From positions 70-54,579 of the forward strand of contig MFNE01000001.1 in the NCBI GenBank assembly GCA_001783695.1: 54,510 bases of DNA, read 5' to 3'. Source of the stretch: Candidatus Lambdaproteobacteria bacterium RIFOXYD2_FULL_50_16 (GTDB lineage Bacteria; SAR324; XYD2-FULL-50-16). A program made the position numbers and the translations under genes. The notes under the pieces were generated by a model. That model saw only the letters and a list, made by a program, of their open reading frames with translations. It searched no databases and had not been told where the DNA came from. Each line of letters starts with the position of its first letter. Positions within the stretch are counted from its first letter, which is position 1. This document shows positions 1,681 to 44,277 of the stretch, piece after piece.

Positions 1681-1681
1681 T

Positions 1682-3433: not shown

Positions 3434-3459
3434 AAGATTCGAGCAGTTTTTAACCATTT

Positions 3460-4893: not shown

Positions 4894-4902
4894 GGAGTCC
4901 TT

Positions 4903-7317: not shown

Positions 7318-7346
7318 TTTTCATAGCGCCCACCGGACCTTATAAT
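7318..7346 (+). promoter_or_regulatory. Putative sigma70 promoter of leuA
   Basis: TTTTCA-N17-TATAAT (perfect -10) 55 bp upstream of the ATG; GGAG SD. Confidence 0.5.
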
Positions 7347-7401
7347 ATGAGACTAAACGCTTTTTCAACCATTAACCTCGGCGAGCCCGATACGGAGCCC
7401 C

Positions 7402-8949: not shown

Positions 8950-8981
8950 TACCAGTCCCCTTAAAAGGGGATGAGTATTAG

Positions 8982-9010
8982 TTGATCTTTGTTGGTTAAG
9001 GCCTTATACT
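8982..9010 (+). promoter_or_regulatory. Sigma70 promoter of the lon-miaA operon
   Basis: TTGATC-N17-TATACT, preceded by a short hairpin tcccct-taaa-agggga after the leuA stop. Confidence 0.65.
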
Positions 9011-9049
9011 TAAAAGCGAATAGTCGCAGCCAACCCTTTGAGCCTCTAC

Positions 9050-12939: not shown

Positions 12940-13022
12940 GAATAAAAAATTCTTGCCTAAAAAGCCCAGTCGTGGCAGTTCCTGAAACATTCGTTCCCTG
13001 TCTGTTTTTCAAAGAGAAGGTC

Positions 13023-23029: not shown

Positions 23030-23437
23030 ATGCTGTTTAACTTCGGGGTGGCTTTAACCTTCTTGATCGTGATGGCGGGCTTCGTCGCTGGCAACCTGCT
23101 TGTGCAGTTGCTCCTTAGCCCACATAACAACTACGATGCCAAGAAGATGCCTTATGACTGCGGCGAAGAGCCGGTGGGCTCTGGCTACCGACAGTATAAC
23201 TTACGGTTTTACTTGGTCGCATTGGTTTTTGTGATCTTCGATGTGGAAATCGCGTTTATGTATCCAGTCACTGCTGTCTTTAAAGACCTAACCCAAGATG
23301 GTTGGGGACTGATGGCTTTTGTAGAAATCGCGATTTTTGTATTGATTCTGACGGTTGCCTTTGTTTACACCTGGAGCGAAGGGGGTCTGGATTGGATTCG
23401 TGAGCAGGTAAAACGGCCCACGTCGCCTAGGGAATAA
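23030..23437 (+). CDS. nuoA: Complex I subunit A; start ATG 23030
   Basis: [32 protein letters not shown]. Confidence 0.95.
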
Positions 23438-23441
23438 GAAG

Positions 23442-23930
23442 ATGAACAACCTCTTACACAGTTTCGAGTCAGACGGCATTGTCTTGACTACTCTTGATCA
23501 AGCGCTCAATTGGACCAGGGCCAATTCTCTGTTTTACATGTTGTTTGGCTTGGCTTGCTGCGGGATTGAAATGATGCAAACCGGTGGCCCTCGTGGCGAC
23601 CTGGACCGCTTCGGTTCGGTCCCCCGTGCTTCACCCAGACAGTCAGACTTAATGATTGTTGCCGGAACGGTAACCCTTAAGATGGCCAGCCGGGTTAAAC
23701 GCCTTTACGACCAAATGGCCGAGCCTCGATATGTGATTTCGATGGGCAGTTGCTCGAACACGGGTGGACTGTTTCAGTCGGGTTATTCAGTCTTGCATGG
23801 TGTGGACCGGGTAATTCCGGTAGATGTTTATCTGCCCGGTTGCCCTCCAAGGCCCGAGGCGCTCACCTCTGCGTTGATCGAGATCCAAAAAAAGATCAAA
23901 GCCGAGCGTTACCTGCGCAAACAGAAGTGA
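23442..23930 (+). CDS. nuoB: Complex I subunit B (N2 cluster)
   Basis: [34 protein letters not shown]. Confidence 0.97.
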
Positions 23931-23934
23931 ACCT

Positions 23935-24462
23935 ATGAGCTTAGATACAAACGCAATCTTAGAGCGACTTAAAGCCCAAGCCCCGGCACTGCGGCTTGAG
24001 CTGCAAAGCGGGGCGGGCGACCTAGCCATTAAGGCAGAGCCCCATGACTTGGCCGAGCTAATGAAGCTTTGCAAAAGCGACCCAGAGCTTAAATTTGAAT
24101 GTTTGGCCAGCCAAACCGCTAGCCATTATCCAAAGACCGAAACTACTGGGGAACATTTTAAACTTTATTATCACCTCTTAAGCCACAGTCTAAAACACCA
24201 ATTAGTGGTGGTTATAGAGGCTTTGGGCTCTGCACCAGAGGTGGATTCGGTGGTTAGTGTTTGGAACGCAGCTAACTGGCTAGAACGAGAGACCTGGGAC
24301 CTTTTAGGGGTTAGCTTTAAAGGGCATCCCGACCTAAGGCGGATTATGAATCCCGAAGATTGGGAAGGGCACCCACTACGCAAAGATTACGTGATTCCGA
24401 CCCAGTATCAAGACATCGACAACAAACCTTCGGAGATCGCCGAAAGTTTCAAGTTGAGTTAA
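23935..24462 (+). CDS. nuoC: Complex I subunit C
   Basis: ANWLERETWDLLG..F.GHPDLRRI..P.DW.GHPLRKDY. Confidence 0.96.
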   Translation: MSLDTNAILERLKAQAPALRLELQSGAGDLAIKAEPHDLAELMKLCKSDPELKFECLASQTASHYPKTETTGEHFKLYYHLLSHSLKHQLVVVIEALGSAPEVDSVVSVWNAANWLERETWDLLGVSFKGHPDLRRIMNPEDWEGHPLRKDYVIPTQYQDIDNKPSEIAESFKLS

Positions 24463-24473
24463 GGATTAAAGGC

Positions 24474-25592
24474 ATGGGCAAGCTCAGAACAGAATTGATG
24501 ACCATCAACATGGGTCCCCAACACCCTTCGACCCATGGGGTAATCCGGTTTATCATCGATACCGATGGCGAGGTTATTCACCGCTGCGAGCCAGATGTGG
24601 GTTATCTGCACCGCTCTATCGAAAAAATTACTGAACATTTGAGCTGGCAGGGGATTGTTCCCTTTACTGATCGGGTAGATTACCTTTGCGCAATGAACTC
24701 CAACTGGGCCTATGTGATGGCCGTGGAAAAGATGATCGCAGTGGAGGTGCCGCGGCGCGCTGAATTTATTCGGGTAATGGTAGGTGAGCTCAACCGGATA
24801 TCGAGCCACATGATCGCTATCGGCACCACGGATATGGACATGGGAGCCTTCACCCCCTTTATCCAACTCTTGCGCGAACGCGAATATATTAACGACCTCC
24901 TTGAGATGGTAAGCGGGGCGCGGTTAACCTATAATTACCTCTCCATCGGCGGGGTTAATTACGACATTCCTCGCAACTGGCTTTTTAAAGTAGAAGAGTT
25001 TTTGAATCATTTTGATCCCGCAATGGAACAAATGAACCGGCTATGTACCTATAACCGGATCTTTATCAATCGCATGGCTAATCTGGCGCCGATTTCTAAA
25101 GAGTTGGCTTTTGACTATAACCTCGTAGGTCCGAACCTTCGTGGTTCGGGGGTTAAATCGGATGTCCGCCGAGACCAGCCTTATTCGGTATATTCTGAAC
25201 TCGACTTTGAAATACCAGTCGGTGAGGGTTTTGGCGGGGAAGTGGGCGATTGTTACGACCGTTTTATGGTGCGGATCTTAGAGGTTCGTGAGTCGATCAA
25301 AATCCTTCGCCAATGCATCAAGATGATGCCCGAGGGCCCGATTCAAGCGAAGGTTAAAAACACCATTAAACCTCCAGAAGGCCACTTCTACTCACGCAGT
25401 GAAACCCCCAGAGGAGACACAGGCTATTTTATTGAGTCAAGCGGGGGAACCTCGCCTTACCGCTTAAAGATTAGGTCAGGAAGTTTTACTGGAATTTCGA
25501 TCACTCCCGCAATCTCCAAGGGTATCTTGATCGCCGACCTAGTGGCGGTGATTGGCTCCTTGGATATTGTTGCACCCGAATTGGACCGATAA
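24474..25592 (+). CDS. nuoD: Complex I subunit D; start ATG 24474
   Basis: NMGPQHPSTHG, GYLHR..EK, DRVDY, ELNRI.SH, E.PRG, C-terminal SLD.V..E.DR; no NiFe CxxC pairs. Confidence 0.97.
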   Translation: MGKLRTELMTINMGPQHPSTHGVIRFIIDTDGEVIHRCEPDVGYLHRSIEKITEHLSWQGIVPFTDRVDYLCAMNSNWAYVMAVEKMIAVEVPRRAEFIRVMVGELNRISSHMIAIGTTDMDMGAFTPFIQLLREREYINDLLEMVSGARLTYNYLSIGGVNYDIPRNWLFKVEEFLNHFDPAMEQMNRLCTYNRIFINRMANLAPISKELAFDYNLVGPNLRGSGVKSDVRRDQPYSVYSELDFEIPVGEGFGGEVGDCYDRFMVRILEVRESIKILRQCIKMMPEGPIQAKVKNTIKPPEGHFYSRSETPRGDTGYFIESSGGTSPYRLKIRSGSFTGISITPAISKGILIADLVAVIGSLDIVAPELDR

Positions 25593-25595
25593 GCC

Positions 25596-26846
25596 ATGAT
25601 CATCGAACTCCTGACTTCGGTAGGAATCCCCGAGCTGGCCGCCAAATTTATTTTTGCCGGAGCAGTTGGGTTTTTGGCCATAAACTTCATCGCCGTTTAT
25701 GCGGGTGTGGTTTCGGTAATCGAGCGCAAAGTGGCCGCCAAGATGCAGTCCCGAGTCGGACCCAACCGGGTTGGCCCTGGAGGTTGGCTTCAGTGGCTCG
25801 CTGATGGAATCAAGTTGATGTTAAAAGAGGATATCCACCCTCACGGAGCGGATCACTTCTTATTTAACATGGCTCCCTTTTTAATCGTTTGCGGTGTGGC
25901 CGGGGCCTTTGCGGTACTTCCTTGGGGACCAGCCCACGCCATTGCGGCTGACCTTAACGTCGGGATTCTTTATTTTATATCGATCACCTCCTTAGTGGTT
26001 GTCGGCATTTTAATGGCCGGTTGGTCTTCAAACAACAAATGGGCCTTGATCGGCGGGATGCGAGCCGCAGCCCAGATCGTTTCCTACGAGATTCCGGTAG
26101 CCATGGGATTGCTACCGGCAATTATGATTGTAGGCAGCCTGCAAGTATCGGCATTGACTGAGTCCCAAGGCTTTATGCCCTGGGACTGGACCGCTTTTGA
26201 CAACCCCTTTGCGCTGCTCGGGTTTTTAGTCTTTTTGACTGGCTCTGTAGCCGAATCCAACCGCGCTCCCTTTGATTTACCAGAAGCCGAATCTGAGTTG
26301 GTCGCTGGCTTTTTTACCGAATACTCGGGTTTCCGCTTTGCCTGCTTCACCCTAGGCGAGTTTGCGGCCACTTGGGCGATTGGGGCGATTACCACCGCCG
26401 TCTATTTAGGGGGTGGTCAATTGCCTCCTTCCATGGCCGGGATGATCCCCCTTTCGATTGGGCTTTTTGTCCTAAAAACCATGTCAGTGGTTTTCTTGCT
26501 AATGTGGTTCCGCTGGACCTTGCCCCGCTTCCGTATTGATCAGATGATGGATTTCAGTTGGAAATACCTACTACCGCTTTCGCTGGTGGCCTTTTTCGGG
26601 CAAGCGATTTACATCTTGATCTCGTGGGACAGCCCGGCGATGCAAACCATTGTTTCACACCTGTTGGCGCTGGCGGTGTTAGGGGTCATTTTCTTGTTTG
26701 CTGGAAGAGTAGCCTACAACATCAAGATTCAACTGATCCCGATCAACACGCTATCTACCGAGATTGGCCCCCTCGAACGCGCTGGCAAAATTGCCCCGCC
26801 GCCAGCAGTGGTCGAGGAAGTCGAAACGGCTGAGGAGGGCGCATGA
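25596..26846 (+). CDS. nuoH: Complex I subunit H with C-terminal extension
   Basis: ERK..A..Q.R.GPNRVG, ADGIKL..KE, AQ.VSYE, NR.PFDLPEAESELV.G..TEYSG, RWTLPRFR.DQ. Confidence 0.96.
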   Translation: MIIELLTSVGIPELAAKFIFAGAVGFLAINFIAVYAGVVSVIERKVAAKMQSRVGPNRVGPGGWLQWLADGIKLMLKEDIHPHGADHFLFNMAPFLIVCGVAGAFAVLPWGPAHAIAADLNVGILYFISITSLVVVGILMAGWSSNNKWALIGGMRAAAQIVSYEIPVAMGLLPAIMIVGSLQVSALTESQGFMPWDWTAFDNPFALLGFLVFLTGSVAESNRAPFDLPEAESELVAGFFTEYSGFRFACFTLGEFAATWAIGAITTAVYLGGGQLPPSMAGMIPLSIGLFVLKTMSVVFLLMWFRWTLPRFRIDQMMDFSWKYLLPLSLVAFFGQAIYILISWDSPAMQTIVSHLLALAVLGVIFLFAGRVAYNIKIQLIPINTLSTEIGPLERAGKIAPPPAVVEEVETAEEGA

Positions 26847-27478
26847 ACAGGAAACCCAGATTGAGCTTTAAAGCCTATTTCGGGCAAATCGTCAGCGGGG
26901 TGCAGACCATGTTCGAGGGGATGAGTATCTCCCTAGCCAGTACCTTTTTGAAGGTGCAAACCGTTGAATATCCAGACGTTGACATTAGCAGCCGCGAGTC
27001 CTTGCGCCAGTCCACCTACAAGGGGAACATGGCGGGTATGCCTGAGAACTATCGTGGGATTCTAAAAGTCGATTTGGATATTTGTACGGCTTGTTTGATT
27101 TGCATGAAGGCCTGTCCGATCGACTGCATTGCTATTACTAACGTCAAATGCGACAAACGCAAGTTTAACGGTAAGTCGGGTAAAGCCGCAGTCCAGACCC
27201 GAGCGGCAACCCGCTTTGATATTGATATTGGCAAGTGTATGTTTTGTGGACTTTGTGTAATCCCCTGCCCGACTGGAGCTATTGCCCATTCGAAGATCTT
27301 CGAGATGAACCGGGGCAGTTTGGCCGAGCTTGTCGAGCGGTTTGTTACCCCTGAACAGGCAGCCAAACACGAAGCACGCGCTTTAGAGATTGAAACGGAA
27401 GAAGCCGAAAAAAAGGCCGCTAAAGCCAAAACTGACGCCGAAGCCAAGGCTAAAGTTGAACCTAAAGGGGAAGCATGA
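26843..27478 (+). CDS. nuoI: Complex I subunit I (2x 4Fe-4S) with insertions and a Lys/Ala/Glu-rich tail
   Basis: T.EYP, YRG, CTACLICMKACP, CMFCGLCVIPCP. Confidence 0.93.
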   Translation: MNRKPRLSFKAYFGQIVSGVQTMFEGMSISLASTFLKVQTVEYPDVDISSRESLRQSTYKGNMAGMPENYRGILKVDLDICTACLICMKACPIDCIAITNVKCDKRKFNGKSGKAAVQTRAATRFDIDIGKCMFCGLCVIPCPTGAIAHSKIFEMNRGSLAELVERFVTPEQAAKHEARALEIETEEAEKKAAKAKTDAEAKAKVEPKGEA

Positions 27479-27972
27479 CACAGTCAGTCTTTTTTGCGAT
27501 TTTTTCGGGCCTGACCTTAGTCACTGCCGGGATTGTGGCGTTGAATCAAAACCTGATTCGTGCCGCCTTTGCCCTGTTTTTCTGCCTCTTCGCGGTTGCT
27601 GGGGTCTATGTCACCCTAGGCGGCGACTTTGTGGCCATGGTCCAATTGATGGTTTACGCTGGCGGGGTCGCAATTTTATTAACCTTCGGAGCGATGCTAA
27701 CCGCTGATGTTAGCCAACCTTCTGGGTCTAACCTAAACTTCCAAGGGGTTTGGGCGATGATTGGGGGAGTGTCGTTTTTTAGTGTTTTATACTACGTACT
27801 CGAAGAGACCCAGTGGCCCCTAAAGGGCACCAATTATTTGGACCCTACTACCAAAGAACTGGGCAAACTTTTACTCAAAGACTATTTGCTACCCTTTGAG
27901 GTGATCTCCTTTTTGCTCTTGATCGCTATGGTGGGCGCGGTTTACTTGGTTTTAAAGGGGGAACAGGAATGA
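27475..27972 (+). CDS. nuoJ: Complex I subunit J
   Basis: F.A.VQL.VYAGGV.IL..F..ML, YLLPFE.IS.LLL.A.VGA. Confidence 0.95.
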   Translation: MTQSVFFAIFSGLTLVTAGIVALNQNLIRAAFALFFCLFAVAGVYVTLGGDFVAMVQLMVYAGGVAILLTFGAMLTADVSQPSGSNLNFQGVWAMIGGVSFFSVLYYVLEETQWPLKGTNYLDPTTKELGKLLLKDYLLPFEVISFLLLIAMVGAVYLVLKGEQE

Positions 27973-28280
27973 GCCTTTCTTTGGTGCTAGCCATTTCCGC
28001 TGGCCTGTTTGCTTTGGGCACGATGATGTTTGTGGTCAAAAAAAATCTAATTGCGATTTTGATGGGGGTCGAACTCCTAATGAACGCAGCGGCCTTAAAC
28101 TTTATGGGTTTTTCCTATTACAGTCCGGCCAAGGGGCACCCCCTAGACGGACAGGTTTTCGCGTTGTTTGTGATCTTGATCGCCGCCGCCGAAGCAGTTG
28201 TGGCCTTAGGGATAGCCATTGCGGTTTATAAAGAGTTCGGCCATGTTTCGGCAGACAAACTCAGCCAGTTGGAGGGCTAG
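27969..28280 (+). CDS. nuoK: Complex I subunit K
   Basis: N.I..LMGVEL..NA, GQVFA.FV...AAAEA. Confidence 0.96.
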   Translation: MSLSLVLAISAGLFALGTMMFVVKKNLIAILMGVELLMNAAALNFMGFSYYSPAKGHPLDGQVFALFVILIAAAEAVVALGIAIAVYKEFGHVSADKLSQLEG

Positions 28281-30368
28281 ATGATCTCGATGATTCCCCT
28301 AGTCCCCATTTTGCCGCTGGTTGGAGCCCTAATCATTGGGTTATTTGGCAAACGAATTCAGGCTACTATCGGTGAGTTTGCCACGGGAGTTTTAGGTTGT
28401 GCTATGCCCGGTTTGGCTGCATTAATAAGTTTTGGTAGTTTTTTCGAGTTAATAGCTCGCCCAGCAACAGACCGGATTATTGTATCCCACTTGGCCCCCT
28501 GGGTCAGTGTAGCTGATTTCCAGGTCGAGTGGGCCTTCCGTTATGACCCCTTATCGGCGATGATGTTAATGATCATCACCGGCATTGGTACCCTGATCCA
28601 TGTCTATTCCATGGGGTACATGCACGAGGACCCTAGTTACTGGCGCTTCTTTAGCTATATCAACCTGTTTTTGGGGGCGATGTTGCTCTTGGTTTTGGGC
28701 GACAACCTTTTGATTATGTTCCTCGGTTGGGAAGGGGTAGGGCTTTGTAGTTACTTGTTGATTGGTTTCTGGTTTAACAACCCCGACTACGCCTATGCTG
28801 GACGAAAAGCCTTTATTGTCAACCGCATTGGTGACTTAGGTTTTTTAACCGGAATGTTTACCTTGATCCTCTTCTCGGCGGCCAACTTTGAGGTGGTGAC
28901 CTTAAGCTTCGGGGAATTACAAGGTCGCATGGATACCCTGGCCCAATATACGCTCTGGGGATTCCCGGTTTTAGAGGTCGCCGCCTTTTGTTTCTTTGTG
29001 GGCGCGATTGGCAAGTCGGCGCAGATCCCTTTGTACGTCTGGTTGCCCGACGCCATGGCCGGACCGACTCCGGTTTCGGCCTTGATTCACGCGGCCACCA
29101 TGGTAACCGCCGGGGTTTATATGATCGCCCGGATGTACTTTATGTACAGTCTCGCTCATTTTACCCTTGAGTTTATCGCGATTATCGCCGCCCTGACCTG
29201 CTTTTTCTCGGCCACCATTGGCATGGCCCAGTTCGACATTAAAAAGGTCTTGGCCTACTCGACCGTAAGCCAGTTGGGTTATATGTTTTTAGCCATGGGG
29301 GTTGGTGCCTACTCGGCAGGAACCTTCCACCTCTTGACCCATGCCGCCTTTAAAGCTGCACTGTTTATGGGCTCTGGCTCGGTGATTATCGCTATGCACC
29401 ACGAGCAAGACATGCGCAAGATGGGTGGGCTCTTAAAAAAGATGCCTATTACCGGCTGGGCCTTCATTTTCGCCACTTTGGCCATTATGGGGTTCCCTGG
29501 CACCTCGGGTTTTTTCTCTAAAGACGAAATCCTAGAAAAGGCTTTTGAAGAAAGTGTTTGGCTTTGGTTAGTTGGTTTTATTGTCGCGGGGATGACCAGC
29601 TTCTATATGTGGCGGGCCGTCTTTATGACCTTTTTTGGTGAATTCAAAGGGGATCACCATACTTGGGAACATTGCCACGAGCAGCCCAAGCGGACCGTTG
29701 TGCCCATTGCGATTTTAGCAGCCTTGGCCCTAAGTTTGGGATTCTTAAACGTCCCCGACTTTATGGGCGGCGATTACAGCTTTTCCAGATACTTAAGCCC
29801 AGTGGTTAAAAACCTGGAAGAGGCGCAGGTCCACGGAATGCCCGACTCGATCGACGGCGAACAGCACGCCCCGGTCCACGCCGAGGAACATGGGGATTTG
29901 TTGATAGAGGTGGGTTTGATGGTGGGTTCGGTCACTTGGACCCTCTTGACCGCCTTCTTGGCGTATTACCTTTACTTGGTTAATCCCAAGGCTCGCGAAG
30001 CCCTTATGAGCCGGGCAGGACCACAAGCGGTCTTTAAAGTGCTTAATAATAAGTACTATGTGGACGAATTTTACGACCTAGTAGTAGTCGGCCCCCTGAA
30101 GAAGTGTTACGCCTTTATGGGTGACTTCGATAAATACGTGGTCGATGGTGCAGTGAACTTGGCTGGGTATGTAGGACGTGGCTTAGGAATTTTAGCCGGG
30201 TTTTTAGACCAGCATATTGTGGACGGCGCGGTCAACGAGGTCGCATGGGCCTCGCAAACAACAGGAAAAGGCTTTAGTCTGCTCCAATCTGGGCGAATTC
30301 AAGCCTTAGTAGGAGCTACCCTGGTGTTTTTCGCGGCGGTGTTAACCGTTTGGATTGTTTATCTCTAG
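28281..30368 (+). CDS. nuoL: Complex I subunit L (antiporter-like) with lengthened transverse helix
   Basis: GWEGVGLCSYLLIGFW, KAF.VNRIGD, KSAQ.PL.VWLPDAMAGPTPVSALIHAATMV, HAAFKA, GF.SKDEI, Q.G near the C-terminus. Confidence 0.97.
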   Translation: MISMIPLVPILPLVGALIIGLFGKRIQATIGEFATGVLGCAMPGLAALISFGSFFELIARPATDRIIVSHLAPWVSVADFQVEWAFRYDPLSAMMLMIITGIGTLIHVYSMGYMHEDPSYWRFFSYINLFLGAMLLLVLGDNLLIMFLGWEGVGLCSYLLIGFWFNNPDYAYAGRKAFIVNRIGDLGFLTGMFTLILFSAANFEVVTLSFGELQGRMDTLAQYTLWGFPVLEVAAFCFFVGAIGKSAQIPLYVWLPDAMAGPTPVSALIHAATMVTAGVYMIARMYFMYSLAHFTLEFIAIIAALTCFFSATIGMAQFDIKKVLAYSTVSQLGYMFLAMGVGAYSAGTFHLLTHAAFKAALFMGSGSVIIAMHHEQDMRKMGGLLKKMPITGWAFIFATLAIMGFPGTSGFFSKDEILEKAFEESVWLWLVGFIVAGMTSFYMWRAVFMTFFGEFKGDHHTWEHCHEQPKRTVVPIAILAALALSLGFLNVPDFMGGDYSFSRYLSPVVKNLEEAQVHGMPDSIDGEQHAPVHAEEHGDLLIEVGLMVGSVTWTLLTAFLAYYLYLVNPKAREALMSRAGPQAVFKVLNNKYYVDEFYDLVVVGPLKKCYAFMGDFDKYVVDGAVNLAGYVGRGLGILAGFLDQHIVDGAVNEVAWASQTTGKGFSLLQSGRIQALVGATLVFFAAVLTVWIVYL

Positions 30369-30407
30369 TCAACGGACCAAAGGTCTCGCAAACAAACTGA
30401 GGTTGTG

Positions 30408-31916
30408 ATGAGTCATCTTCTATCCTGGGTCGTCTTTTTGCCCCTGATCCCCATCCCGCTTCTGTTCTTGCTACCCAAGGACAAAGGCAAGTGGCTAGCG
30501 CTAGCGGTTACTCTGGCCGATTTTGTCATAGGGTTGCCGTTGATCCTCGGCTTTGACCGGGCTATGCCGGGGGTAAGCAACCCAGGTGAGATGCAGTTCG
30601 TTGAGCGGGCTACTTGGATACCAAGCCTTGGGGTCGAATATTATATCGGCATCGACGGCCTATCGGTAACCATGATCCTTCTAACCCTGTTAATTGGGGT
30701 CTTGGCGGTTTTAGCTAGCTGGAACATAGCCAAACACGAAGCGGGATACTGGTCGATGTTTTTACTGCTGCAAACCGCCATGTTAGGGGTGTTTGTCTCG
30801 TTAGACCTGATCCTCTTCTTCGTATTTTGGGAGGTTATGCTCTTCCCCATGTACTTCCTAATCGGAATCTGGGGTGGGCCAAGGCGGGTTTACGCTGCCA
30901 TCAAATTCTTTTTATACACCCTTTTTGGGGGTGTGGGTATGCTCCTAGCCTTTATCGCCATTTGGTACTACGCGCCTGGGCAGCGCACTTGGGACATGAT
31001 CGAAATCTTGCAACGAGTTTCTGCGGGTGGACATTTCAACGGCCCTGATATTTTTGGCGTCGAATTTGCCAAGATGATCTTTGTGGTCTTGTTTGTGGGC
31101 TTCGCCATCAAGGTGCCGATCTTCCCGTTCCACACTTGGTTGCCTGACGCCCACGTTGAAGCGCCCACCGCCATATCGGTTATCCTGGCCGGGGTGCTTC
31201 TTAAAATGGGAACCTACGGGATGCTTCGAATCAACTTTACCCTGTTCCCCGAAGCTTTTCACTGGTTCAGAACCTTCTTGGTGGTCCTGGCGGTAATCAA
31301 CATCGTTTACGGGGCCCTCTGCGCCTTGGCGCAGTCGGACCTTAAAAAAATGGTGGCTTACTCCTCGGTGAGCCACATGGGCTTTATCCTCTTAGGCATG
31401 GCGGCAGCCACCCCACAGGGGATGAACGGTGCTATGTTGCAGATGTTTAACCACGGAACCATCACGGCCATGCTCTTCCTTTTGGTAGGCGTCATCTACG
31501 ACCGCGCCCACCACCGCCAAATCGACGGGTTCGGCGGCATGGCCTCGGTTATGCCTAAATTCGCCGCCCTGACCAGCTTCGCCTTTATGGCGGCTATTGG
31601 CCTACCTGGACTTTCAGGCTTTGTTTCAGAACTTCTGATTTTGTCAGGTAGTTTTAAGGTTTATCAGGTAGCCACTATCATCGCTGGGTTAGGGATCATC
31701 TTTGGAGCCGGGTACATGCTCTGGAGTTACCAGCGGGTCTTTTTTGGCAAGGTTAACGAGAAGTATGCCGATTTTAAAGATGTAAACGTGATTGAGGTTG
31801 CCAGCTTGGTACCCTTGTTGGTGATAGTGGTTTATCTCGGTATTTTCCCAAACAACCTGATCGTCTTTTTCGAGCAGTCGATGAACCACATCAGTGAGCT
31901 TCTTCTGGCGAGGTAG
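30408..31916 (+). CDS. nuoM: Complex I subunit M
   Basis: G.DG.S, FWE.ML.PMY, IK.P.FPFHTWLPDAHVEAPT, LLKMG.YG, AYSSVSHMG, GLPG..GFV.E. Confidence 0.97.
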   Translation: MSHLLSWVVFLPLIPIPLLFLLPKDKGKWLALAVTLADFVIGLPLILGFDRAMPGVSNPGEMQFVERATWIPSLGVEYYIGIDGLSVTMILLTLLIGVLAVLASWNIAKHEAGYWSMFLLLQTAMLGVFVSLDLILFFVFWEVMLFPMYFLIGIWGGPRRVYAAIKFFLYTLFGGVGMLLAFIAIWYYAPGQRTWDMIEILQRVSAGGHFNGPDIFGVEFAKMIFVVLFVGFAIKVPIFPFHTWLPDAHVEAPTAISVILAGVLLKMGTYGMLRINFTLFPEAFHWFRTFLVVLAVINIVYGALCALAQSDLKKMVAYSSVSHMGFILLGMAAATPQGMNGAMLQMFNHGTITAMLFLLVGVIYDRAHHRQIDGFGGMASVMPKFAALTSFAFMAAIGLPGLSGFVSELLILSGSFKVYQVATIIAGLGIIFGAGYMLWSYQRVFFGKVNEKYADFKDVNVIEVASLVPLLVIVVYLGIFPNNLIVFFEQSMNHISELLLAR

Positions 31917-31921
31917 GAATT

Positions 31922-33349
31922 ATGTTTAACACGCTACCCCATCTAGCCCACCTGCCAGCACACCTTGTGCTGTCTTTGGGATTGCTCTTTTTCTTCCTTG
32001 GAAAGACCATCCCTGGGATCAAGAAGCTTCCGGCTACCGCTATTTTTATTGCCATGCTGGCTTTAGCAGCAGCTTTAGAAGCGAGCGAAACTGGAAGTCA
32101 CGACCTCTTTTTTGGGATGGTCCAAACCGATAGTTTCTCTAGGTTATACAACCAACTCTATTTTATTGTTAGTGCTCTAGTGGTGGTGATGCTCCATTTC
32201 TCGGACGAAATGGACCGTGAAAACGACTGGGAGAACTACGGGTTACTTAGCTGTTTGATTCTGGGCATGATGTTTATGACCAGTGCCTCACACCTTTTAA
32301 TGGCCGTAATCGCCATTGAGATGGTTTCGATTCCTAGTTACTTGTTGGTCGCTCTTAACCGAAAAAACCCGGCCTCGAAAGAAGCAAGTATGAAATATAT
32401 CCTCTTTGGCAGTTTTGCTACTGGGGTTATGCTTTACGGGATGTCATTCCTCTTCGGGATGACCGGCAGTCTGACCTTTGCCGATATCTGGAACGGGTTA
32501 GGGAGTGAATCGGTAGGGACTCCTATTTACTATCTCGCCATTGGTTTTACCTTGGCTGGTATGTCCTTTAAAGTGGCTGCGGTTCCGTTTCATTTTTGGT
32601 GCCCCGATGCATACCAAGCCGCCCCCACGCCGATTACTGCCTTTTTGTCGGTCGCGCCCAAGGTAGCAGGCTTGACCTTGATGATGCGGTTTTTTGCAGA
32701 CCATCTGCCGGTACAAGGCGATTCCTTGACCCAGATGTTGTCGATTGTGGCTATTGTCACCATGGTGGTTGGCTCCTTCGCCGCCCTTAAACAAACCGAT
32801 ATCAAACGTCTTCTGGCTTATAGTTCAATAGCCCACGCCGGATTTTTGATGATGGGTGTGGCGGTGTTAAACACCGATGGGCGCCAAGCGGTTTTCTTTT
32901 ACATCCCCATTTACATCTTGATGAACCTAGGGGCCTTTATGGCCATTATTTACTTGGCTCAAGATCACGACTATAAAATCTCTGCCTTTAACGGGGCGGT
33001 TAAATCCAACCCCCTATTAGTAACCGCCTTTGCCGTCTGCACCTTGTCCTTGGCAGGGATACCGCCTTTTGCTGGGTTTGTGGGGAAATTTTATCTCTTT
33101 AAAGTGGCCATGGAAAAAGGTCTTTATCCGATGATCCTTGCCGCGGGTATCTCTACGGTAGTTTCCCTTTATTTCTACGTAAGTCTATTAAAGGTGATGA
33201 TTATCGATCAAGAGGCTCGAACCTTCTCCCCCTTGGGTTCCAAGGTGCCCGTGGTTTTTGTGTCTCTTTGCGCGTTGCCTCTAGTATTTTTAGGGTTATA
33301 TTGGGTGCCACTGGTGAACTGGGCCGACAAGGTCAGGCTTTTCCAGTAG
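31922..33349 (+). CDS. nuoN: Complex I subunit N
   Basis: E..S..SY.L, EA..KY...G, FKV.AVPFH.W.PD.Y, KRLLAYSSIAH.G, LSLAGIPP..GF.GK. Confidence 0.96.
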   Translation: MFNTLPHLAHLPAHLVLSLGLLFFFLGKTIPGIKKLPATAIFIAMLALAAALEASETGSHDLFFGMVQTDSFSRLYNQLYFIVSALVVVMLHFSDEMDRENDWENYGLLSCLILGMMFMTSASHLLMAVIAIEMVSIPSYLLVALNRKNPASKEASMKYILFGSFATGVMLYGMSFLFGMTGSLTFADIWNGLGSESVGTPIYYLAIGFTLAGMSFKVAAVPFHFWCPDAYQAAPTPITAFLSVAPKVAGLTLMMRFFADHLPVQGDSLTQMLSIVAIVTMVVGSFAALKQTDIKRLLAYSSIAHAGFLMMGVAVLNTDGRQAVFFYIPIYILMNLGAFMAIIYLAQDHDYKISAFNGAVKSNPLLVTAFAVCTLSLAGIPPFAGFVGKFYLFKVAMEKGLYPMILAAGISTVVSLYFYVSLLKVMIIDQEARTFSPLGSKVPVVFVSLCALPLVFLGLYWVPLVNWADKVRLFQ

Positions 33350-33399
33350 TTTAAGCAACCCCTACCCTAAATAACTGTCCTGTAGTTGCCCCTTTTGGT

Positions 33400-33429
33400 T
33401 TGACTTTACCTTGAGGGGGACTATAGACT
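33400..33429 (+). promoter_or_regulatory. Possible internal promoter of the PFOR gene
   Basis: TTGACT-N16-TATAGA or N18-TAGACT; 5'UTR hairpin tccgcca-ctc-tggcgga. Confidence 0.45.
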
Positions 33430-33496
33430 GGTCTAGCCGATTTGCCCTCCGCCACTCTGGCGGAACGCCCAGGAACAGACACATCCCAGGTAGTCC

Positions 33497-36400
33497 ATGA
33501 GCAGCCCAAAATACCCCGGTACCCGTACCACAACCAACGGTAATACCCTTGTTGCGCTTTATACTGAAGCGCGGATTGCGGAAGCCGGAATCTTTTATCC
33601 GATCACCCCTTCGACTGAAATGGGTGAGTTGTTCCAACATTCTTACTCGCAAGGTGAACTCAACGTTTTTGGCGATGCTAAAATCGCCCTTGAGGCCGAA
33701 GGGGAGCATGCCGCTCAATCGGGGTCGATTGCGGCTTCGGTGACCGGCAAACGGGTGGTTAACTTTACCTCTGGACAGGGAGTGGTTTACGGTAGTGAAC
33801 CCTACTATCATGCGCCCTCGAAGTTGAGTACCATGGTGCTAAACATCGCCGCACGGGCCTTGACTAAGTCAGCCCTAAACGTACATTGCGGACACGACGA
33901 CGTTTACACGGTGCTAGATACGGGCTGGACGATGCTGTTTGCTAAAGACGCCCAGCAGGCTTCAGACCAAGCGATGATTTTGCGAAAGGTCAACGAATTA
34001 TCCCTAAATCCTGGGATCAACATTCAAGACGGTTTTTTAACCAGCCACTTAGAGCGCACCTTCCGCATCCCCGAAGCCGGGCTGATCCGCGAATTTTTGG
34101 GCCGTTCAGACGACTTGATTGATTGCCCCACCGAGGCCCAACGCGAACTTTTTGGGCCTAAACGCCGCCGAATCCCAATTGGAATGGACCTAAAAAACCC
34201 TTTATTGTTGGGCTCGGTCCAAAACCAAGAGCATTACATGAACGGCGTTATTGCTCGCCGAAATAACTTTACCGAACAAATTTTAGGTTTTTTAGAAGAC
34301 GCCTATAAAGAGTTTGGCGAGTTAACGGGCCGCCACTACGGCCTGATAAGCCAGCACAACTGCGAAAAAGCGGAGACCGTTTTTATCTCCTTGGGCAGTT
34401 CTGCTGAAAACATGGAAGCCGCAGTGGATTATCTCAAGGCCACTCGCGGAGAAGAAGTGGGTGTGATTCACTTAAACGTGATCCGCCCCTTCCCAGAAAA
34501 AGCGGTAATCGAAGCGTTGCGTGGCAAAAAGAACGTGATTGTCCTAGAGCGGATGGACGACCAAACCGCTTCGGACAACCCGATGGCCCGCGACATCCGC
34601 ACCGCCTTGTCTAAAGCCGCCACCAACCACCGAACCAACGCTTTTGCAGACCTACCAAGCCTTTCGCCAGATGAAGTTCCGCGAATCTTTAGTGGGGTCT
34701 ATGGTTTAGGTAGTCGTGACTTCCGCCCAGAGGGCGTGCTGGGTGCCTACGAATTTGTCACCGGCAAAATCAAGCGCACCGACGGCAAATCGGCCGCCGA
34801 TGGGGTCAGCTTCATTTATATCGGGGTGGACCATCCCTACTCGGTTATCTCTGAAGATACCCCAAGTTTACTCCCTGACGGCGCCATTGCCATTCGCTTC
34901 CACTCGATTGGCGGCTGGGGCGCGATTACCACGGGCAAAAACCTGGGTGAAGTAATTGGATCGATTTCTAGTGTTATCGCTAAAAATCAAAACCGTATCG
35001 GCGACGACGGACAGCCCGAAGAGATCTTCCATGTCAGCGCCAACCCTAAATACGGTTCCGAGAAAAAAGGGGCCCCGACCAACTATTTCTTGGTCGCCGC
35101 GCCTGAACGGATTCGGGTCAATTGTGACCTTCGCCATGTTAACGTGGTGCTTTGTTGCGACCCTAAAGCCTTCACTCACACCAACCCCTTAGAGGGTATG
35201 GCCGATGGTGGGGCGTTGATTATTGAAACCGATGAATCGTCCTCAGCGGGCCTCTGGAGCCGCATCCCCAAGCGTTACCGCGCCGACATAATCAAGCGCA
35301 AGATTCGCCTTTACGGCCTAGCTGGCTTCCAAATCGCCCACAAAGCGACTGACCGTGAAGACCTCCAGTACCGAATGCAAGGCAACAGCTTTCTGGGAGC
35401 CTTTTTCAAGGTTTCTCCACTGTTAGAAAAATACGGGATCAGCGAAGACGAATTCAAAAAAATCGTAGAAGCCCAATACAACAAGAAGTTTGGCCGCTTT
35501 GGTGAGGCCGTAGTGAAGTCGAACATGACCGTTATGATCGACGGCTTCTCTGGGGTTTGGCAGGCCGAATACGGGGCCTTAGATGCCCCGGACCGTAGCT
35601 TGATGCGCGGAGACACCTTGATGCCTGTTAGCGGGGCGACCCGCTTCGGGGCCGATACCCTGGTCGCTCAGCCTCAAAAACACCCCTACAAAACCTTAGC
35701 GAAATACGACAGTGAATTCCGCATTGGTTTGGGTTATAATCAACCAGCTTCGGCGTTGGCCTCGACCGGGGTTATGGCCTCAGCGACGGCGGCAACCAAC
35801 TCCAAATACGTCTCTCGACGCCGAGTGCCGATTTATTACCCAGAAAACTGTACCCAGTGTATGGCCTGTATCGCCTCTTGCCCAGATACAGCTATGCCCA
35901 ACACCTCCCAAGACGTGGCCGTGGTACTCCAGACGGCTATTGGCAACTATGTTTCTGACGAAAGCGCCCGCGAGACGCTGATGGGTGCGGTAGAAGCGAT
36001 GGACCAAAGCTTGCGGAAAAAGATGTTGACTGCAGTGGAAGACAAAAAGGCAGCGCCCCCGTCCTTAACCCAATTGGTTGAAGGCGAATTAGCCGGCATT
36101 GATATTTCGGCCAACTCGAAAGCCGAGTTGTTAAGCATTTTAGGCAAAGTGCCCTTTGCTTACGCCAAGTCGCGGACGATTTTCGAGATCCCCGAGAAAA
36201 AAGAGGCTGGTGCCGGTGGTTTGTTCACCATCTTAATCTCAGATCTTTGTAAGGGTTGTGGCGAATGTGTCCAAGAATGTGGGGAACACCAAGCTTTGAA
36301 GATGGAGCCCGAAACCGAACAAATCAACGCCGATTTAGCTACGGGGATCCGCTTTTTAGACCTGTTACCTGAGACGCCACAAAAGTTTTTAGGGAAATAT

Positions 36401-38050
36401 GACTACGAAAACCCCCTAGAAACCCGCGCAGCAGTCTTGCACAACCATTTGATGGTCAGGAGCAACTACGAAGCCATTGTGAGTGGTGACGGCTCTTGTG
36501 CCGGTTGTGGCGAAAAAACCATCTTACGTGCGGTGGCCAGCATTACTGAAGCGGTCATGCGGCCTTTGTACCACCAAAAAGCGGGCCGTCTCACTGAAAA
36601 AGCCAAGGTTTTAGCCACCGAAGGGGCGGCTAAACTCAAGGCACTCAAAGAAAAAGACACCGATGCTTACCAGTGGTGGGCCAAGTCGGTGAAGCATTGC
36701 CTGCTTAATTTAGGCGGGGAAAACGAAAAAGACACGGATGCCCGAATCGAAGAAGGCTTTATGGGGGGGGACCCAGATTTGATCAAAGTGATTGATATGG
36801 TGCTTCGCCAGGATGCCTTTAACCACCGCGATTTGCGTGCTGTGGACGGACGGTATTCCAACGGGATGTCTGTATTGATGATGTCTAGCTCGACTGGTTG
36901 TAACTCGGTTTATGGCTCGACCCACCCCAACAACCCACACCCTTACCCCTGGATGAACAGCCTCTTCCAGGACAGCCCAACCTTAGCCTGGATCTTTGGC
37001 GAGACCATGATCATGGACCATGCTAAACGCAGTGTGATCCCTGAACGCTTGGCCGACGCCTTGCTTTCTGGCAAAGGTTGCAGCAAAACCGATTATTTCC
37101 ATTTGACCCACTTCTCGGATCATTACATGACCGATCAAGAGGTCTTGGAACTGCCCAAGGCTTGGGCGATTGGTGGCGACGGGGCAATGGGAGATATTGG
37201 GTTCCAAAACCTGTCCAAGGTGATGTTGCAAGGGCGGCCAAACGTCAAGTGTTTGATGTTAGATACCCAGGTTTACTCAAACACGGGCGGGCAAAACTCA
37301 GATTCGTCGATTATGCCCGGCGGCTACGACATGAACCAACATGGCGCTGCTACCGAAGGTAAATTGATTGAACGAAAAGAAGTCGCCTCAATCTTTATGG
37401 CAGGCCACGGTAGCCCCTATGTCGCCCAGGTCAGTATGGCCGACTCGGCGGCGATGTACCGCAGTGTGATGGACGCCATTGCCTATAGAGGTACCGCGTT
37501 CCTCCAAGCCTTTACCACCTGCCAGCCAGAACACGGCGTGGCCGACAATATGTCCACCGCCCAAGCCCAGAAGGTTCGAGATTCCAGGGCTATGCCCCAA
37601 GTGGTCTTCGATCCTAACCTTGGCGAACGCTACGAGTTAGCCCTGTCGGTCAAAGGCAACCCCAACCCTAAAAAGGATTGGATGCAAAAGAAAGGACCCA
37701 ACGGAAATACTTACAACTACACGGTTGCGCACTGGGCTACCAGTGAACAGCGTTTCCGCAAGCACTTCTTCTCGGTTAAGCCGGGTGAAGAAAGCAAGCT
37801 GGTGCATTTAGATGAAGTATTACCTAAGGTTAGCCAGCAGGACATCCATCACCGCCGTTATCTGGACCCCAACGCCACCTGTCATGTTCCTGAAAAGGGC
37901 GTGTATATTATGATGGAAAAGGATGACAAAATGGTTCCCATGGGTATTAGTCGCCAGTTGGTGCTCTTCTGCGTTGAGCGCCGCAAAAACTGGCGTATGA
38001 TCCAGTCGATGGCTGGTATTCAGTCGGAGGACTACGGCACCCCTGCCTAG
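33497..38050 (+). CDS. Single-chain 2-oxoacid (pyruvate):ferredoxin/flavodoxin oxidoreductase, large NifJ-like type
   Basis: YPITPSTEMGE, FTSGQG, YGLGS.DF, GG.G..T..K, KYGSEKKG, CTQCMACIASCP, CKGCGECVQEC, CAGCGE, TPP motif GGDG...DIG...DTQVYSNTGGQ, C.PEHG. Confidence 0.93.
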   Translation: MSSPKYPGTRTTTNGNTLVALYTEARIAEAGIFYPITPSTEMGELFQHSYSQGELNVFGDAKIALEAEGEHAAQSGSIAASVTGKRVVNFTSGQGVVYGSEPYYHAPSKLSTMVLNIAARALTKSALNVHCGHDDVYTVLDTGWTMLFAKDAQQASDQAMILRKVNELSLNPGINIQDGFLTSHLERTFRIPEAGLIREFLGRSDDLIDCPTEAQRELFGPKRRRIPIGMDLKNPLLLGSVQNQEHYMNGVIARRNNFTEQILGFLEDAYKEFGELTGRHYGLISQHNCEKAETVFISLGSSAENMEAAVDYLKATRGEEVGVIHLNVIRPFPEKAVIEALRGKKNVIVLERMDDQTASDNPMARDIRTALSKAATNHRTNAFADLPSLSPDEVPRIFSGVYGLGSRDFRPEGVLGAYEFVTGKIKRTDGKSAADGVSFIYIGVDHPYSVISEDTPSLLPDGAIAIRFHSIGGWGAITTGKNLGEVIGSISSVIAKNQNRIGDDGQPEEIFHVSANPKYGSEKKGAPTNYFLVAAPERIRVNCDLRHVNVVLCCDPKAFTHTNPLEGMADGGALIIETDESSSAGLWSRIPKRYRADIIKRKIRLYGLAGFQIAHKATDREDLQYRMQGNSFLGAFFKVSPLLEKYGISEDEFKKIVEAQYNKKFGRFGEAVVKSNMTVMIDGFSGVWQAEYGALDAPDRSLMRGDTLMPVSGATRFGADTLVAQPQKHPYKTLAKYDSEFRIGLGYNQPASALASTGVMASATAATNSKYVSRRRVPIYYPENCTQCMACIASCPDTAMPNTSQDVAVVLQTAIGNYVSDESARETLMGAVEAMDQSLRKKMLTAVEDKKAAPPSLTQLVEGELAGIDISANSKAELLSILGKVPFAYAKSRTIFEIPEKKEAGAGGLFTILISDLCKGCGECVQECGEHQALKMEPETEQINADLATGIRFLDLLPETPQKFLGKYDYENPLETRAAVLHNHLMVRSNYEAIVSGDGSCAGCGEKTILRAVASITEAVMRPLYHQKAGRLTEKAKVLATEGAAKLKALKEKDTDAYQWWAKSVKHCLLNLGGENEKDTDARIEEGFMGGDPDLIKVIDMVLRQDAFNHRDLRAVDGRYSNGMSVLMMSSSTGCNSVYGSTHPNNPHPYPWMNSLFQDSPTLAWIFGETMIMDHAKRSVIPERLADALLSGKGCSKTDYFHLTHFSDHYMTDQEVLELPKAWAIGGDGAMGDIGFQNLSKVMLQGRPNVKCLMLDTQVYSNTGGQNSDSSIMPGGYDMNQHGAATEGKLIERKEVASIFMAGHGSPYVAQVSMADSAAMYRSVMDAIAYRGTAFLQAFTTCQPEHGVADNMSTAQAQKVRDSRAMPQVVFDPNLGERYELALSVKGNPNPKKDWMQKKGPNGNTYNYTVAHWATSEQRFRKHFFSVKPGEESKLVHLDEVLPKVSQQDIHHRRYLDPNATCHVPEKGVYIMMEKDDKMVPMGISRQLVLFCVERRKNWRMIQSMAGIQSEDYGTPA

Positions 38051-38448: not shown

Positions 38449-38646
38449 ATGAACAAACTCATCCTCATCTTGTTGACCCTTTTTTCTTTTAGTTTAATTG
38501 GTTGCGTGAAAATTGTTAATCAAAGCGAACCGACCCCGAAGAATTCCTCGGAGGAAAGCTCCACGACTCAAGAAGAAAAGGCCGCTCCCGACTGTGGCGC
38601 TGCTGGCGCGGCGGAAAACGCGGATTGTAAAACACCGGCGAAGTAG
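38449..38646 (+). CDS. Small lipoprotein (65 aa)
   Basis: AAGGAG SD; signal peptide with lipobox LIGC; Ser/Thr/Glu-rich linker; C-terminal Cys pair. Confidence 0.8.
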   Translation: MNKLILILLTLFSFSLIGCVKIVNQSEPTPKNSSEESSTTQEEKAAPDCGAAGAAENADCKTPAK

Positions 38647-43479: not shown

Positions 43480-44277
43480 CTATGTTTCGGGTAGAAAAGC
43501 GATGGGGGCGGCCTGGGGAAGCTTGTTGATCTCGACCATTTTTTCCATAAATAAGTTAAAGCCCTCTTGATAGCTGGCGCTGAATTCGTAGTGGAGATTA
43601 GCTAGATAGCCCTCTAACTCTTTGGCACTAGGAAAGATTCCTCGGAAGCGAGACTGGGACATTTCAAAGAGCAAGCCCGCCGCCAACGCCTTGGATTTGA
43701 GTAAAGCCCCATGCAGAGCTAAAACCGCCTTTGGCGATTGGTCAAAAACTTCGCGCCGGACCACCCAAAGGGCAAAAACCATCGGCAGTCCAGTTTTTTG
43801 GTACCACAACTCGCCCAGGTCATACACAAAAGGATCTCGTTTTTCAAAGTAGCGTTTGATCGCATCATCAGCGATTAATAGCTCTGCTGCATGGGGCTGA
43901 TAAGGGTCTTGACTGTAACTTACTTTGAGGTCCTTTAAAAGCCATTGAATCAAGTGAATCGAGGTCAGCGAAAATTCGGTAAGCAAGATTTGCTGGTTGG
44001 CTAATTGCTCAAGTGGTTTGCTACTAAAGAGGTATATCGACCGTACCGGCCCCCTAGACGAGACCGAAAGCTCTGGGAGGATATAATAACGTTCAGGGTT
44101 TGCGGCGTATTCAAAACTAGAAATTACCGAAAGGTCTAATTCCCCTCGGTTGAGTTTCCCATTAAGCTCTGTTACCCTGCCAAATACAGGAGAAAACAGG
44201 CCCGAAGGGGGCGACTCAAGCAATTGATAAAAAACGGGCAAGACATTTAAAACGTCGATTACCCCCAATTTGAGCAT
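43480..44277 (-). CDS. mqnA: Chorismate dehydratase (futalosine menaquinone pathway)
   Basis: G.I..LN..P, LN..L..GELD...ISS.EY, G.V.SI, S.TS, LIADDA, YDLGE.W...TGLPMVFA.W. Confidence 0.85.
   Translation of the reverse strand: MLKLGVIDVLNVLPVFYQLLESPPSGLFSPVFGRVTELNGKLNRGELDLSVISSFEYAANPERYYILPELSVSSRGPVRSIYLFSSKPLEQLANQQILLTEFSLTSIHLIQWLLKDLKVSYSQDPYQPHAAELLIADDAIKRYFEKRDPFVYDLGELWYQKTGLPMVFALWVVRREVFDQSPKAVLALHGALLKSKALAAGLLFEMSQSRFRGIFPSAKELEGYLANLHYEFSASYQEGFNLFMEKMVEINKLPQAAPIAFLPET

Follow-up and report, generated by a model that had tools for sequence, protein, structure and literature searches.

An 11-subunit complex I without an N-module and a giant pyruvate:ferredoxin oxidoreductase-type enzyme encoded side by side in a groundwater bacterium

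From where does a complex I without an NADH-oxidizing module take its electrons? This question is raised by a 54,510-nt stretch of DNA (the window, hereafter; positions 70 to 54,579 of contig MFNE01000001.1) from the groundwater bacterium Candidatus Lambdaproteobacteria RIFOXYD2_FULL_50_16, whose assembly consists of 54 contigs and is 97.9% complete. In the window, an operon for a complex I devoid of the N-module (NuoEFG), the so-called headless form, is directly followed by the gene of an unusually long 2-oxoacid:ferredoxin oxidoreductase (OFOR) of the pyruvate:ferredoxin oxidoreductase (PFOR) type. The initial annotation of this DNA had proposed that the PFOR, directly or via ferredoxin, replaces the NADH module in delivering electrons to menaquinone, and that the system could also run in reverse to drive reductive carboxylation. 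From the genes, their motifs and their neighbourhoods in related genomes, we consider it fairly probable (about 0.6) that the complex and the OFOR are linked functionally via a diffusible ferredoxin, reversibly, and not by contact. Gene families were assigned by Pfam and the curated NCBIfam cut-offs were used as equivalog tests. The genome-level absences described below rest on the 97.9% complete assembly and so are not absolute.

The complex I operon and the OFOR gene

Eleven consecutive open reading frames (ORFs) on the + strand (23030-33349) were assigned by Pfam to NuoA, B, C, D, H, I, J, K, L, M and N, and all the eleven core genes of the 11-subunit (N-module-less) form are present and contiguous. 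The operon likely starts at the ATG of nuoA (23030..23437; Oxidored_q4, E 6.8e-31), which is residue 35 of the longest reading frame (TTG 22928) and lies near the point where alignments to relatives begin. It is followed by nuoB (23442..23930; Oxidored_q6; NCBIfam NuoB 270.5 bits, cut-off 255), nuoC (23935..24462; Complex1_30kDa, E 8.3e-40) and nuoD (24471..25592; Complex1_49kDa, E 3.9e-86), the latter being the sole Complex1_49kDa gene of the genome. For nuoD, a start around 24471 is likelier than the TTG at 24360, and the match to the NCBIfam NuoD models begins at residue 42 of the long reading frame. Then come nuoH (25596..26846; NADHdh, E 2.6e-107), nuoI (26843..27478; Fer4 families), nuoJ (27475..27972; Oxidored_q3), nuoK (27969..28280; Oxidored_q2), nuoL (28281..30368; 695 aa; Proton_antipo_M and Proton_antipo_N; NCBIfam NuoL 682 bits, cut-off 556), nuoM (30405..31916; Proton_antipo_M and Oxidored_q5_N) and nuoN (31922..33349; Proton_antipo_M). 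Only 3 bp lie between the end of nuoD (25592) and the start of nuoH (25596), and therefore the operon has no room for nuoEFG. This was the reading of the initial annotation, and the coordinates and the Pfam assignments both agree with it.

The residues expected of a working electron path were found in place. In NuoB, the ligands of cluster N2 are intact (the tandem CC, the Cys in SMGSC and the Cys in PGCPP). NuoI (211 aa) carries two 4Fe-4S motifs and matches the NCBIfam NuoI models below their cut-off. NuoD retains the His in '...STHGV...' as well as the Tyr in '...RVDY...', which we take to be His38 and Tyr87 of Nqo4. Where hydrogenases have their NiFe ligands it carries no Cys, its C-terminus reads '...SLDIVAPELDR', and NuoD models give it higher scores than NdhH or FpoD models do. 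The quinone-site residues and the missing NiFe ligands, both pointed out by the initial annotation, could thus be read directly from the NuoD sequence.

We observed that the absence of an N-module extends beyond the operon. A genome-wide search for nuoEFG returned no cognate NuoE, NuoF or NuoG; the NuoG signature PF10588 gave 0 matches, and Complex1_51K gave a single match in the genome (1/1), on contig C43, in a three-gene cluster far from nuo. All three products of this cluster fall below the NCBIfam cut-offs (NuoE 136.8 vs 141, NuoF 436.6 vs 558.65 and NuoG 201.1 vs 470). A canonical N-module elsewhere in the genome was ruled out by these scores, by the lack of PF10588 and by the single Complex1_51K match, and complex I is truly N-module-less at the genome level. 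The genome also has a complete nqrABCDEF plus apbE cluster with all six Nqr subunits above the NCBIfam cut-offs. Such a full Na+-translocating NADH:quinone oxidoreductase (Na+-NQR) would therefore provide NADH:quinone activity without any need for complex I.

The gene behind nuoN (33497..38050, + strand) starts 147 bp after the nuoN stop at 33349 and encodes a protein of 1517 aa with the Pfam families POR_N, PFOR_II, POR and Fer4. The initial annotation's description of a 1517-aa PFOR with two ferredoxin-type clusters on the same strand was borne out by Pfam, motifs and coordinates. Against the NifJ-type NCBIfam model TIGR02176, it scores 343.5 bits, below the cut-off of 911.35, so we classify it on sequence grounds as a member of the PFOR superfamily and not as a NifJ equivalog. 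Pfam and NCBIfam positions, together with the alignment to 7plm, place domains I-II-III-V-VI in a single chain, the order of homodimeric PFORs, and the nearest solved relatives are the homodimeric PFORs 7plm, 1b0p and 6cin. The predicted fold of residues 760-1517 (pLDDT 81, pTM 0.84) has its best match among the same PFORs, with 17-19% identity in the structural alignments.

The catalytic equipment appears complete. Two CxxCxxCxxxC motifs (C785-C795 and C918-C928) lie in domain V, and the CxxC, the Cys of 'TGCN' and the Cys of 'TTCQPEHG' of the proximal cluster align to the M. thermoacetica PFOR 6cin. The thiamine-diphosphate/Mg motif GGDG...YSNTGGQ (37172..37294, + strand) matches 6cin residue by residue. 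This motif and the ligands of the three [4Fe-4S] clusters are invariant in 12 and in 28 aligned family members (28/28 for the motif). With 7plm, the Thr in 'YPITPST' and the Arg in 'ARALT' can be aligned, and with 6cin the Asn in 'YSNTGGQ'; we take these three to be the pyruvate-binding residues. The protein therefore has in common with the homodimeric PFORs of D. africanus (1B0P/7PLM) and M. thermoacetica (6CIN) the domain order, the thiamine-diphosphate motif, the cluster ligands and the substrate-site Thr, Arg and Asn, but it is ~300 residues longer, mostly by two helical insertions. Insertion 1 (35915..36202, + strand; residues ~807-902), a gap relative to 7plm, is helical and sits within the ferredoxin domain V, with one cluster motif on either side; its model helices have a pLDDT of about 90. 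Insertion 2 (36509..36829, + strand; residues ~1005-1111) consists of long helices in domain VI and separates the CxxC from the third Cys of the proximal cluster, as judged from the alignments to 7plm and 6cin and from helices 246-352 of the model.

The long form of the enzyme is widespread. The best 120 homologues listed are all 59-76% identical to it, about 1490-1680 aa in length, and come from at least five phyla. Among them are Candidatus Lambdaproteobacteria (the closest named, 75%), Hydrogenedentes, Phycisphaerae, KSB1, Verrucomicrobia, Planctomycetes and Acidobacteria. Further members, known from genome records, belong to Gemmatimonadota, Bacteroidota and Fibrobacterota, and the cultured carriers include Pelagicoccus. 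Our literature search, with subscription-only papers and supplements outside its scope, found no publication on this ~1550-aa OFOR clade or on nuo-PFOR adjacency.

Recurrence of the pair and the proposed electron flow

If the neighbourhood of nuoN and the OFOR reflects a functional link, it should recur. NuoN orthologues (58-72% identity) are present in 17/18 relatives of the same family; 16 genomes were informative, since in G011, which was left out, the gene after nuoN is cut by a contig end. The gene after nuoN is the giant OFOR in 6/16 (G002, G003, G004, G007, G010 and G013). In G001 (genus g2; L133, G001:C164:2805-7046) it is a PFOR of canonical size that is 26% identical to the window OFOR. 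Another gene, presumably NAPRTase-like, follows nuoN in 7/16 (G009, G012, G014, G015, G016, G017 and G018), and something else in G005 and G008. G022, which belongs to another family of the same order, again has the giant OFOR after nuoN, with a gap of only 37 nt. The order nuoABCDHIJKLMN-OFOR, with nuoD abutting nuoH, is identical in all the seven relatives having a giant OFOR neighbour. At the class level, none of the loci fetched (n=11) has an OFOR within 1.5 kb of nuoN.

For other phyla, we examined the best 80 of at least 597 confirmed OFOR loci in other genomes, 64 of the 80 having at least 2 kb of upstream sequence. Directly upstream of the OFOR, nuoN was found in one of these 64, a Fibrobacteria metagenome-assembled genome (MAG; L028) in which nuo is also headless and nuoD abuts nuoH. 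Two Acidobacteria loci have nuoLMN 5-7 kb upstream of the OFOR, and in five Vicinamibacterales loci a nuoB-like gene lies downstream of it, at a distance of about 5 kb. When a tree was built from the C-terminal halves of 28 family members, the OFORs of our lineage formed one clade (support 100/97) that includes the non-adjacent one of G018. The Fibrobacteria OFOR falls in the other major, well-supported clade of the same tree, and therefore the nuoN-OFOR pairing arose at least twice. Thus the adjacency, which the initial annotation had reported for one genome, is conserved in 7/16 same-family genomes (one of them with the canonical-size PFOR), in G022 and in the Fibrobacteria MAG; since it recurs in relatives and once in another phylum, it is more than chance.

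A second kind of pairing was observed in two sister genera (G002 and G010), where a paralogue of ~1490 aa is embedded in an rnf operon. The order is rnfB-OFOR-rnfC-rnfD-rnfG-rnfE-rnfA, followed by korA and korB (L112, G002:C17:6000-20000, 1168-13422; L113, G010:C7:30500-44500), and the G002 copy is 36% identical to the window OFOR in a tblastn alignment. Our own genome has neither this rnf-OFOR cluster nor Rnf. The rnf-embedded paralogue and the nuo adjacency together indicate that OFOR genes of this lineage have repeatedly been paired with ferredoxin-dependent ion pumps.

Searches for a 2-oxoacid dehydrogenase E2, pyruvate formate-lyase, flavodoxin (Flavodoxin_1) and RuBisCO found none in the genome, and besides a KorAB-type two-subunit OFOR, the large OFOR is the sole candidate found for pyruvate/acetyl-CoA interconversion. 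The window itself does hold a lipoate-protein ligase gene (46771-47649, − strand), although the E2 search (PF00198) was negative. The genome also has a nif cluster, nifD-nifK-nifE-nifN-nifX-fdxN-draG (L104, G000:C38:21000-34000, 5092-12418, − strand), and uptake-type NiFe hydrogenase genes, one with a 589-aa frame at 782 bits; a haem-copper-oxidase-like gene is also present. On contig C30, an H+-pyrophosphatase gene is followed by genes for an ATP-grasp/Citrate_bind protein (479 aa) and a CoA-ligase-alpha-like protein of 907 aa, ~600 residues of which have no assigned domain (L115, G000:C30:108000-117640, 2773-9608). Citrate_bind was found in 0/14 control genomes, and this pair may be an ATP-citrate lyase or a citryl-CoA synthetase of the reductive tricarboxylic acid (rTCA) cycle. 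A Sel1/pentapeptide protein is encoded beside the same locus (L115 760-2160); it is the second of its kind, the window containing a 598-aa protein made nearly entirely of pentapeptide repeats (13970-15766, + strand; Pentapeptide, E 1.2e-82).

The initial annotation had also drawn attention to mqnA. This gene (43480-44277, − strand; VitK2_biosynth, E 1.5e-52), which belongs to the futalosine route of menaquinone synthesis, indeed lies 5.4 kb past the PFOR stop. It is on the opposite strand, and Omp85-like, AraC-type and EF-G-like genes, unrelated to it, stand in between; we therefore kept its position as a fact and dropped it as a part of the system. Its presence points to menaquinone as the likely quinone. 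A peptidase-U32-family gene (47514-48665, − strand) is found 3 kb from mqnA, and U32 proteins take part in oxygen-independent quinone biosynthesis.

These elements suggest the following scheme. The headless complex, with its N2 ligands, NuoI clusters and quinone-site residues intact, would be a proton-pumping oxidoreductase between a low-potential carrier and menaquinone, and the OFOR a homodimer-type, PFOR-like enzyme with thiamine diphosphate and three [4Fe-4S] sites. In the oxidative direction, pyruvate and CoA would be converted to acetyl-CoA, CO2 and reduced ferredoxin, and oxidation of the latter by the complex would reduce menaquinone and pump protons. In the reverse direction, driven by the proton gradient, electrons from menaquinol (generated, for example, with H2) would reduce ferredoxin, which could then feed pyruvate synthase, 2-oxoglutarate synthase and nitrogenase. 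We lean only slightly towards the oxidative direction as the default. Of the initial proposal, the feeding of the headless complex via ferredoxin is favoured by the lack of an N-module, by the Na+-NQR and by the synteny. The direct replacement of the NADH module is not supported; members of the same insertion-bearing clade stand alone in other phyla. For the reverse run, the putative lyase or synthetase pair of C30, the nif genes, the uptake-type hydrogenase genes and the lack of RuBisCO provide some support.

Observations against a specific coupling, and other explanations

Several of our observations weigh against a coupling of the two neighbours. First is the 147-bp gap. No terminator-like site was flagged by the scan between 33350 and 33496, in agreement with the initial annotation, which had seen no obvious U-tailed terminator there; however, the scan flagged a sigma-70-like promoter candidate for the OFOR (33400..33429, + strand; TTGACT followed by a -10-like hexamer). 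As promoter and terminator counts over the 16-kb region were close to the shuffle expectation (16 vs 13.2 and 34 vs 22.9), we base the promoter not on the scan but on its conservation across genomes: the -35 TTGAC does not vary among the six genomes aligned across the gap, and in all six TAnAnT stands at a fixed spacing. A terminator-like hairpin with a T-run precedes the promoter-like site closely in G007 and G013 (by the scan), and in G010 a hairpin and T-run, seen by eye and not flagged by the scan, follow the nuoN stop. On this evidence nuo and the OFOR appear to be two neighbouring, separately promoted units, with the OFOR seemingly insulated from nuo in some relatives; read-through from nuo into the OFOR may occur in this genome. 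An own promoter-like site means that adjacency is not equal to co-expression, and the co-transcription implied by the initial annotation is weakened accordingly. The locus (window 31000-36000) occurs in six listed DNA datasets, all groundwater or soil metagenomes, and no RNA run is listed with it.

The distribution of the genes weighs in the same direction. The adjacency is lost in 9/16 of the informative same-family relatives, and 63/64 of the other-phyla OFOR loci have no nuoN upstream. No universal OFOR neighbour emerged when 673 flanking ORFs from 80 loci were clustered; only lineage-restricted clusters were obtained, the largest covering 10 loci. A carrier is not obvious either: among ORFs of 45-220 aa covered by the motif scan, the only small 2x[4Fe-4S] ferredoxin of the genome is the nif-type FdxN, which has an acidic insert, besides two 2Fe-2S candidates, and no general ferredoxin or flavodoxin gene was found in the window. 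That pyruvate is the substrate we infer for an enzyme scoring below the NifJ-type equivalog cut-off. Finally, no citrate-synthase-like domain was detected in the 907-aa protein at the thresholds used, which leaves the lyase assignment, on which the reverse run partly leans, tentative.

Taken together, the separate promoter-like site, the hairpins in three relatives, the loss of adjacency in the family and the stand-alone OFORs of other phyla would fit a synteny inherited without any specific coupling. The OFOR would then serve a general ferredoxin pool (for nitrogenase, biosynthesis and 2-oxoacid synthases), the complex would use other donors, and the adjacency would be a relic of the lineage. 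It also fits this explanation that the OFOR tree largely tracks phyla, as expected for a housekeeping gene. We regard it as doubtful, though by no means negligible. A relic does not readily account for the independent second origin in the Fibrobacteria MAG, for the canonical PFOR substituted in place in G001, or for the paralogue inside rnf operons; these three together argue for selection for the pairing of OFORs with ferredoxin-dependent pumps.

A quite different possibility is that an N-module is supplied in trans by the three-gene cluster of contig C43 (L002, G000:C43:62000-81999, 6484-12169, − strand), which would attach to the 11-subunit complex and turn it into an NAD(P)H:menaquinone oxidoreductase, leaving the neighbouring OFOR irrelevant. 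The trio indeed includes a protein with the NuoE fold, one with the FMN/NADH domain of NuoF and one whose N-terminal Fe-S part is of the NuoG type, and G004, G002 and G010 each have a NuoF-like frame of comparable size (598-607 aa). However, besides the sub-cut-off scores and the missing PF10588, its products differ in build from N-module subunits. The NuoE-like protein has 177 aa, the NuoF-like protein (572 aa) is extended at its C-terminus by a 2x[4Fe-4S] domain, and the third protein (974 aa), a GltD-NuoG-like fusion, joins a 2Fe-2S domain and a GltD-type NADPH/FAD module to the NuoG-type N-terminal Fe-S domains. This is, we presume, the architecture of the soluble flavin-based bifurcating enzymes of the NuoF family, and the trio looks like a soluble NAD(P)H/ferredoxin enzyme. 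Moreover, the trio sits beside a rubrerythrin gene, far from nuo; G022 has the nuo-OFOR layout with no Complex1_51K match at 86% completeness; and NADH is already served by the Na+-NQR. Supply of the N-module in trans by the C43 trio is therefore unlikely, and the full reading built on it very much so.

It seems scarcely probable that the giant OFOR docks on the NuoI/C/D/B face vacated by NuoEFG, its distal cluster handing electrons on to NuoI with no free ferredoxin involved. Such docking would be suggested by the nuoN-OFOR adjacency, by the failure to find a general-purpose small 2x[4Fe-4S] ferredoxin or flavodoxin, and by the position of Insertion 1 inside the ferredoxin domain that carries the exit clusters. 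It could also draw on the C-terminal tail of NuoI (residues ~175-211, 27365-27478), a Lys/Ala/Glu-rich segment of about 45 residues, probably disordered. A charged tail of similar composition is found in 7/7 relatives of our own lineage, and its role as a catcher of an acidic partner is speculation. The same insertions, however, are conserved where no nuo gene adjoins the OFOR, in Acidobacteriota, Planctomycetota, Verrucomicrobiota and Bacteroidota, the PFOR at the same position in G001 is of canonical size, the Fibrobacteria NuoI lacks the tail, and nuo and the OFOR seem to be separate transcription units. A complex prediction of NuoI (9-row alignment) with OFOR residues 769-964 (28-row alignment), run without controls, gave a score of 0.00; it is no answer and counts neither way. 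The wider idea that the whole ~1550-aa clade consists of docking PFORs, whose insertions in the ferredoxin domain and domain VI plug onto headless complex I here and onto Rnf in the sister genera (with the paralogue flanked by rnfB and rnfC), is likewise a long shot. Were docking true, the pair would form a supercomplex that pumps protons while passing electrons from pyruvate to menaquinone without ferredoxin; in reverse, it would act as a pyruvate synthase driven by the gradient.

Two further features of the window touch none of these subjects. A 158-aa ORF (6039-6515, − strand) matches only the C-terminal positions 238-375 of 375 of a Pfam nickel-insertion (LarC-type) family and represents a split or truncated gene. 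A 65-aa ORF (38449-38646, + strand), 400 bp past the OFOR stop, has a signal-peptide-like start ending in Cys, as in lipoproteins, and has no family match.

Known systems and meaning

A functional link through ferredoxin, the reading that we prefer, has close counterparts. Electron flow from PFOR through ferredoxin and an 11-subunit complex I to menaquinone has already been proposed in the literature for other organisms. In D. hafniense, growth on pyruvate or lactate is rotenone-sensitive and a PFOR-ferredoxin-11-subunit complex model was proposed (PMC11238625), and for the headless enzyme of M. thermoacetica ferredoxin was hypothesised as the donor (PMC13040438). Both organisms likewise have nuoABCDHIJKLMN without nuoEFG, with PFOR/ferredoxin input and menaquinone as acceptor proposed (PMC11238625, PMC13040438). 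In D. hafniense, however, neither candidate ferredoxin gene is near the PFOR gene (PMC11238625), whereas here the PFOR-type gene directly follows nuoN. Our genome further differs from both in having a ~1550-aa, insertion-bearing OFOR as well as Na+-NQR, nif genes and a haem-copper-oxidase-like gene.

The division of labour in which NQR oxidises NADH beside an 11-subunit complex without NuoEFG is shared with Prevotella. For Prevotella and other Bacteroidetes, a headless NDH-I combined with NQR was described and its role left open between respiration and cation/H+ antiport; the accessible part of that source does not mention PFOR adjacency (PMC6560451). Cyanobacterial NDH-1 is similarly ferredoxin-dependent and without an N-module (cited in PMC13040438), but it needs extra ferredoxin-docking subunits, and the nuo operon here has no extra genes. 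In our own genome NdhS (PF11623) gave 0 matches with a positive Synechococcus control; NdhV and NdhO were not searched.

Campylobacter and Helicobacter offer another parallel, as there electrons from a pyruvate/2-oxoglutarate oxidoreductase reach a non-NADH complex I by way of a small carrier and menaquinone is reduced. Their complex I keeps NuoG and has two substitute subunits for NuoE and NuoF. The features of this Campylobacterota type were not found here, where nuoD abuts nuoH and both Flavodoxin_1 and PF10588 have 0 matches. The donor in those organisms is flavodoxin (Weerakoon and Olson 2008, cited in PMC11238625), and for Campylobacteria using the rTCA cycle, reverse electron transport through complex I was described (bioRxiv 10.1101/717884). 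What is new in our locus is the genomic pairing itself, its recurrence, including that with Rnf, and the membership of the partner in a widespread, insertion-bearing PFOR clade.

The donor of N-module-less complex I outside the cyanobacteria has so far been inferred. The present genome sets a ferredoxin-reducing enzyme beside the complex, and its relatives set one beside Rnf; therefore this lineage and the cultured carriers of the OFOR clade, Pelagicoccus for example, are suited for testing that inference. Knowledge of the substrate, the oxygen tolerance and the partner of the clade would complete the picture of central metabolism in Acidobacteriota, Planctomycetota, Verrucomicrobiota and others at a point where it has a gap. 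If it is true that the complex runs backwards, it would supply low-potential electrons to a diazotrophic, possibly rTCA-autotrophic bacterium that has neither Rnf nor Fix.

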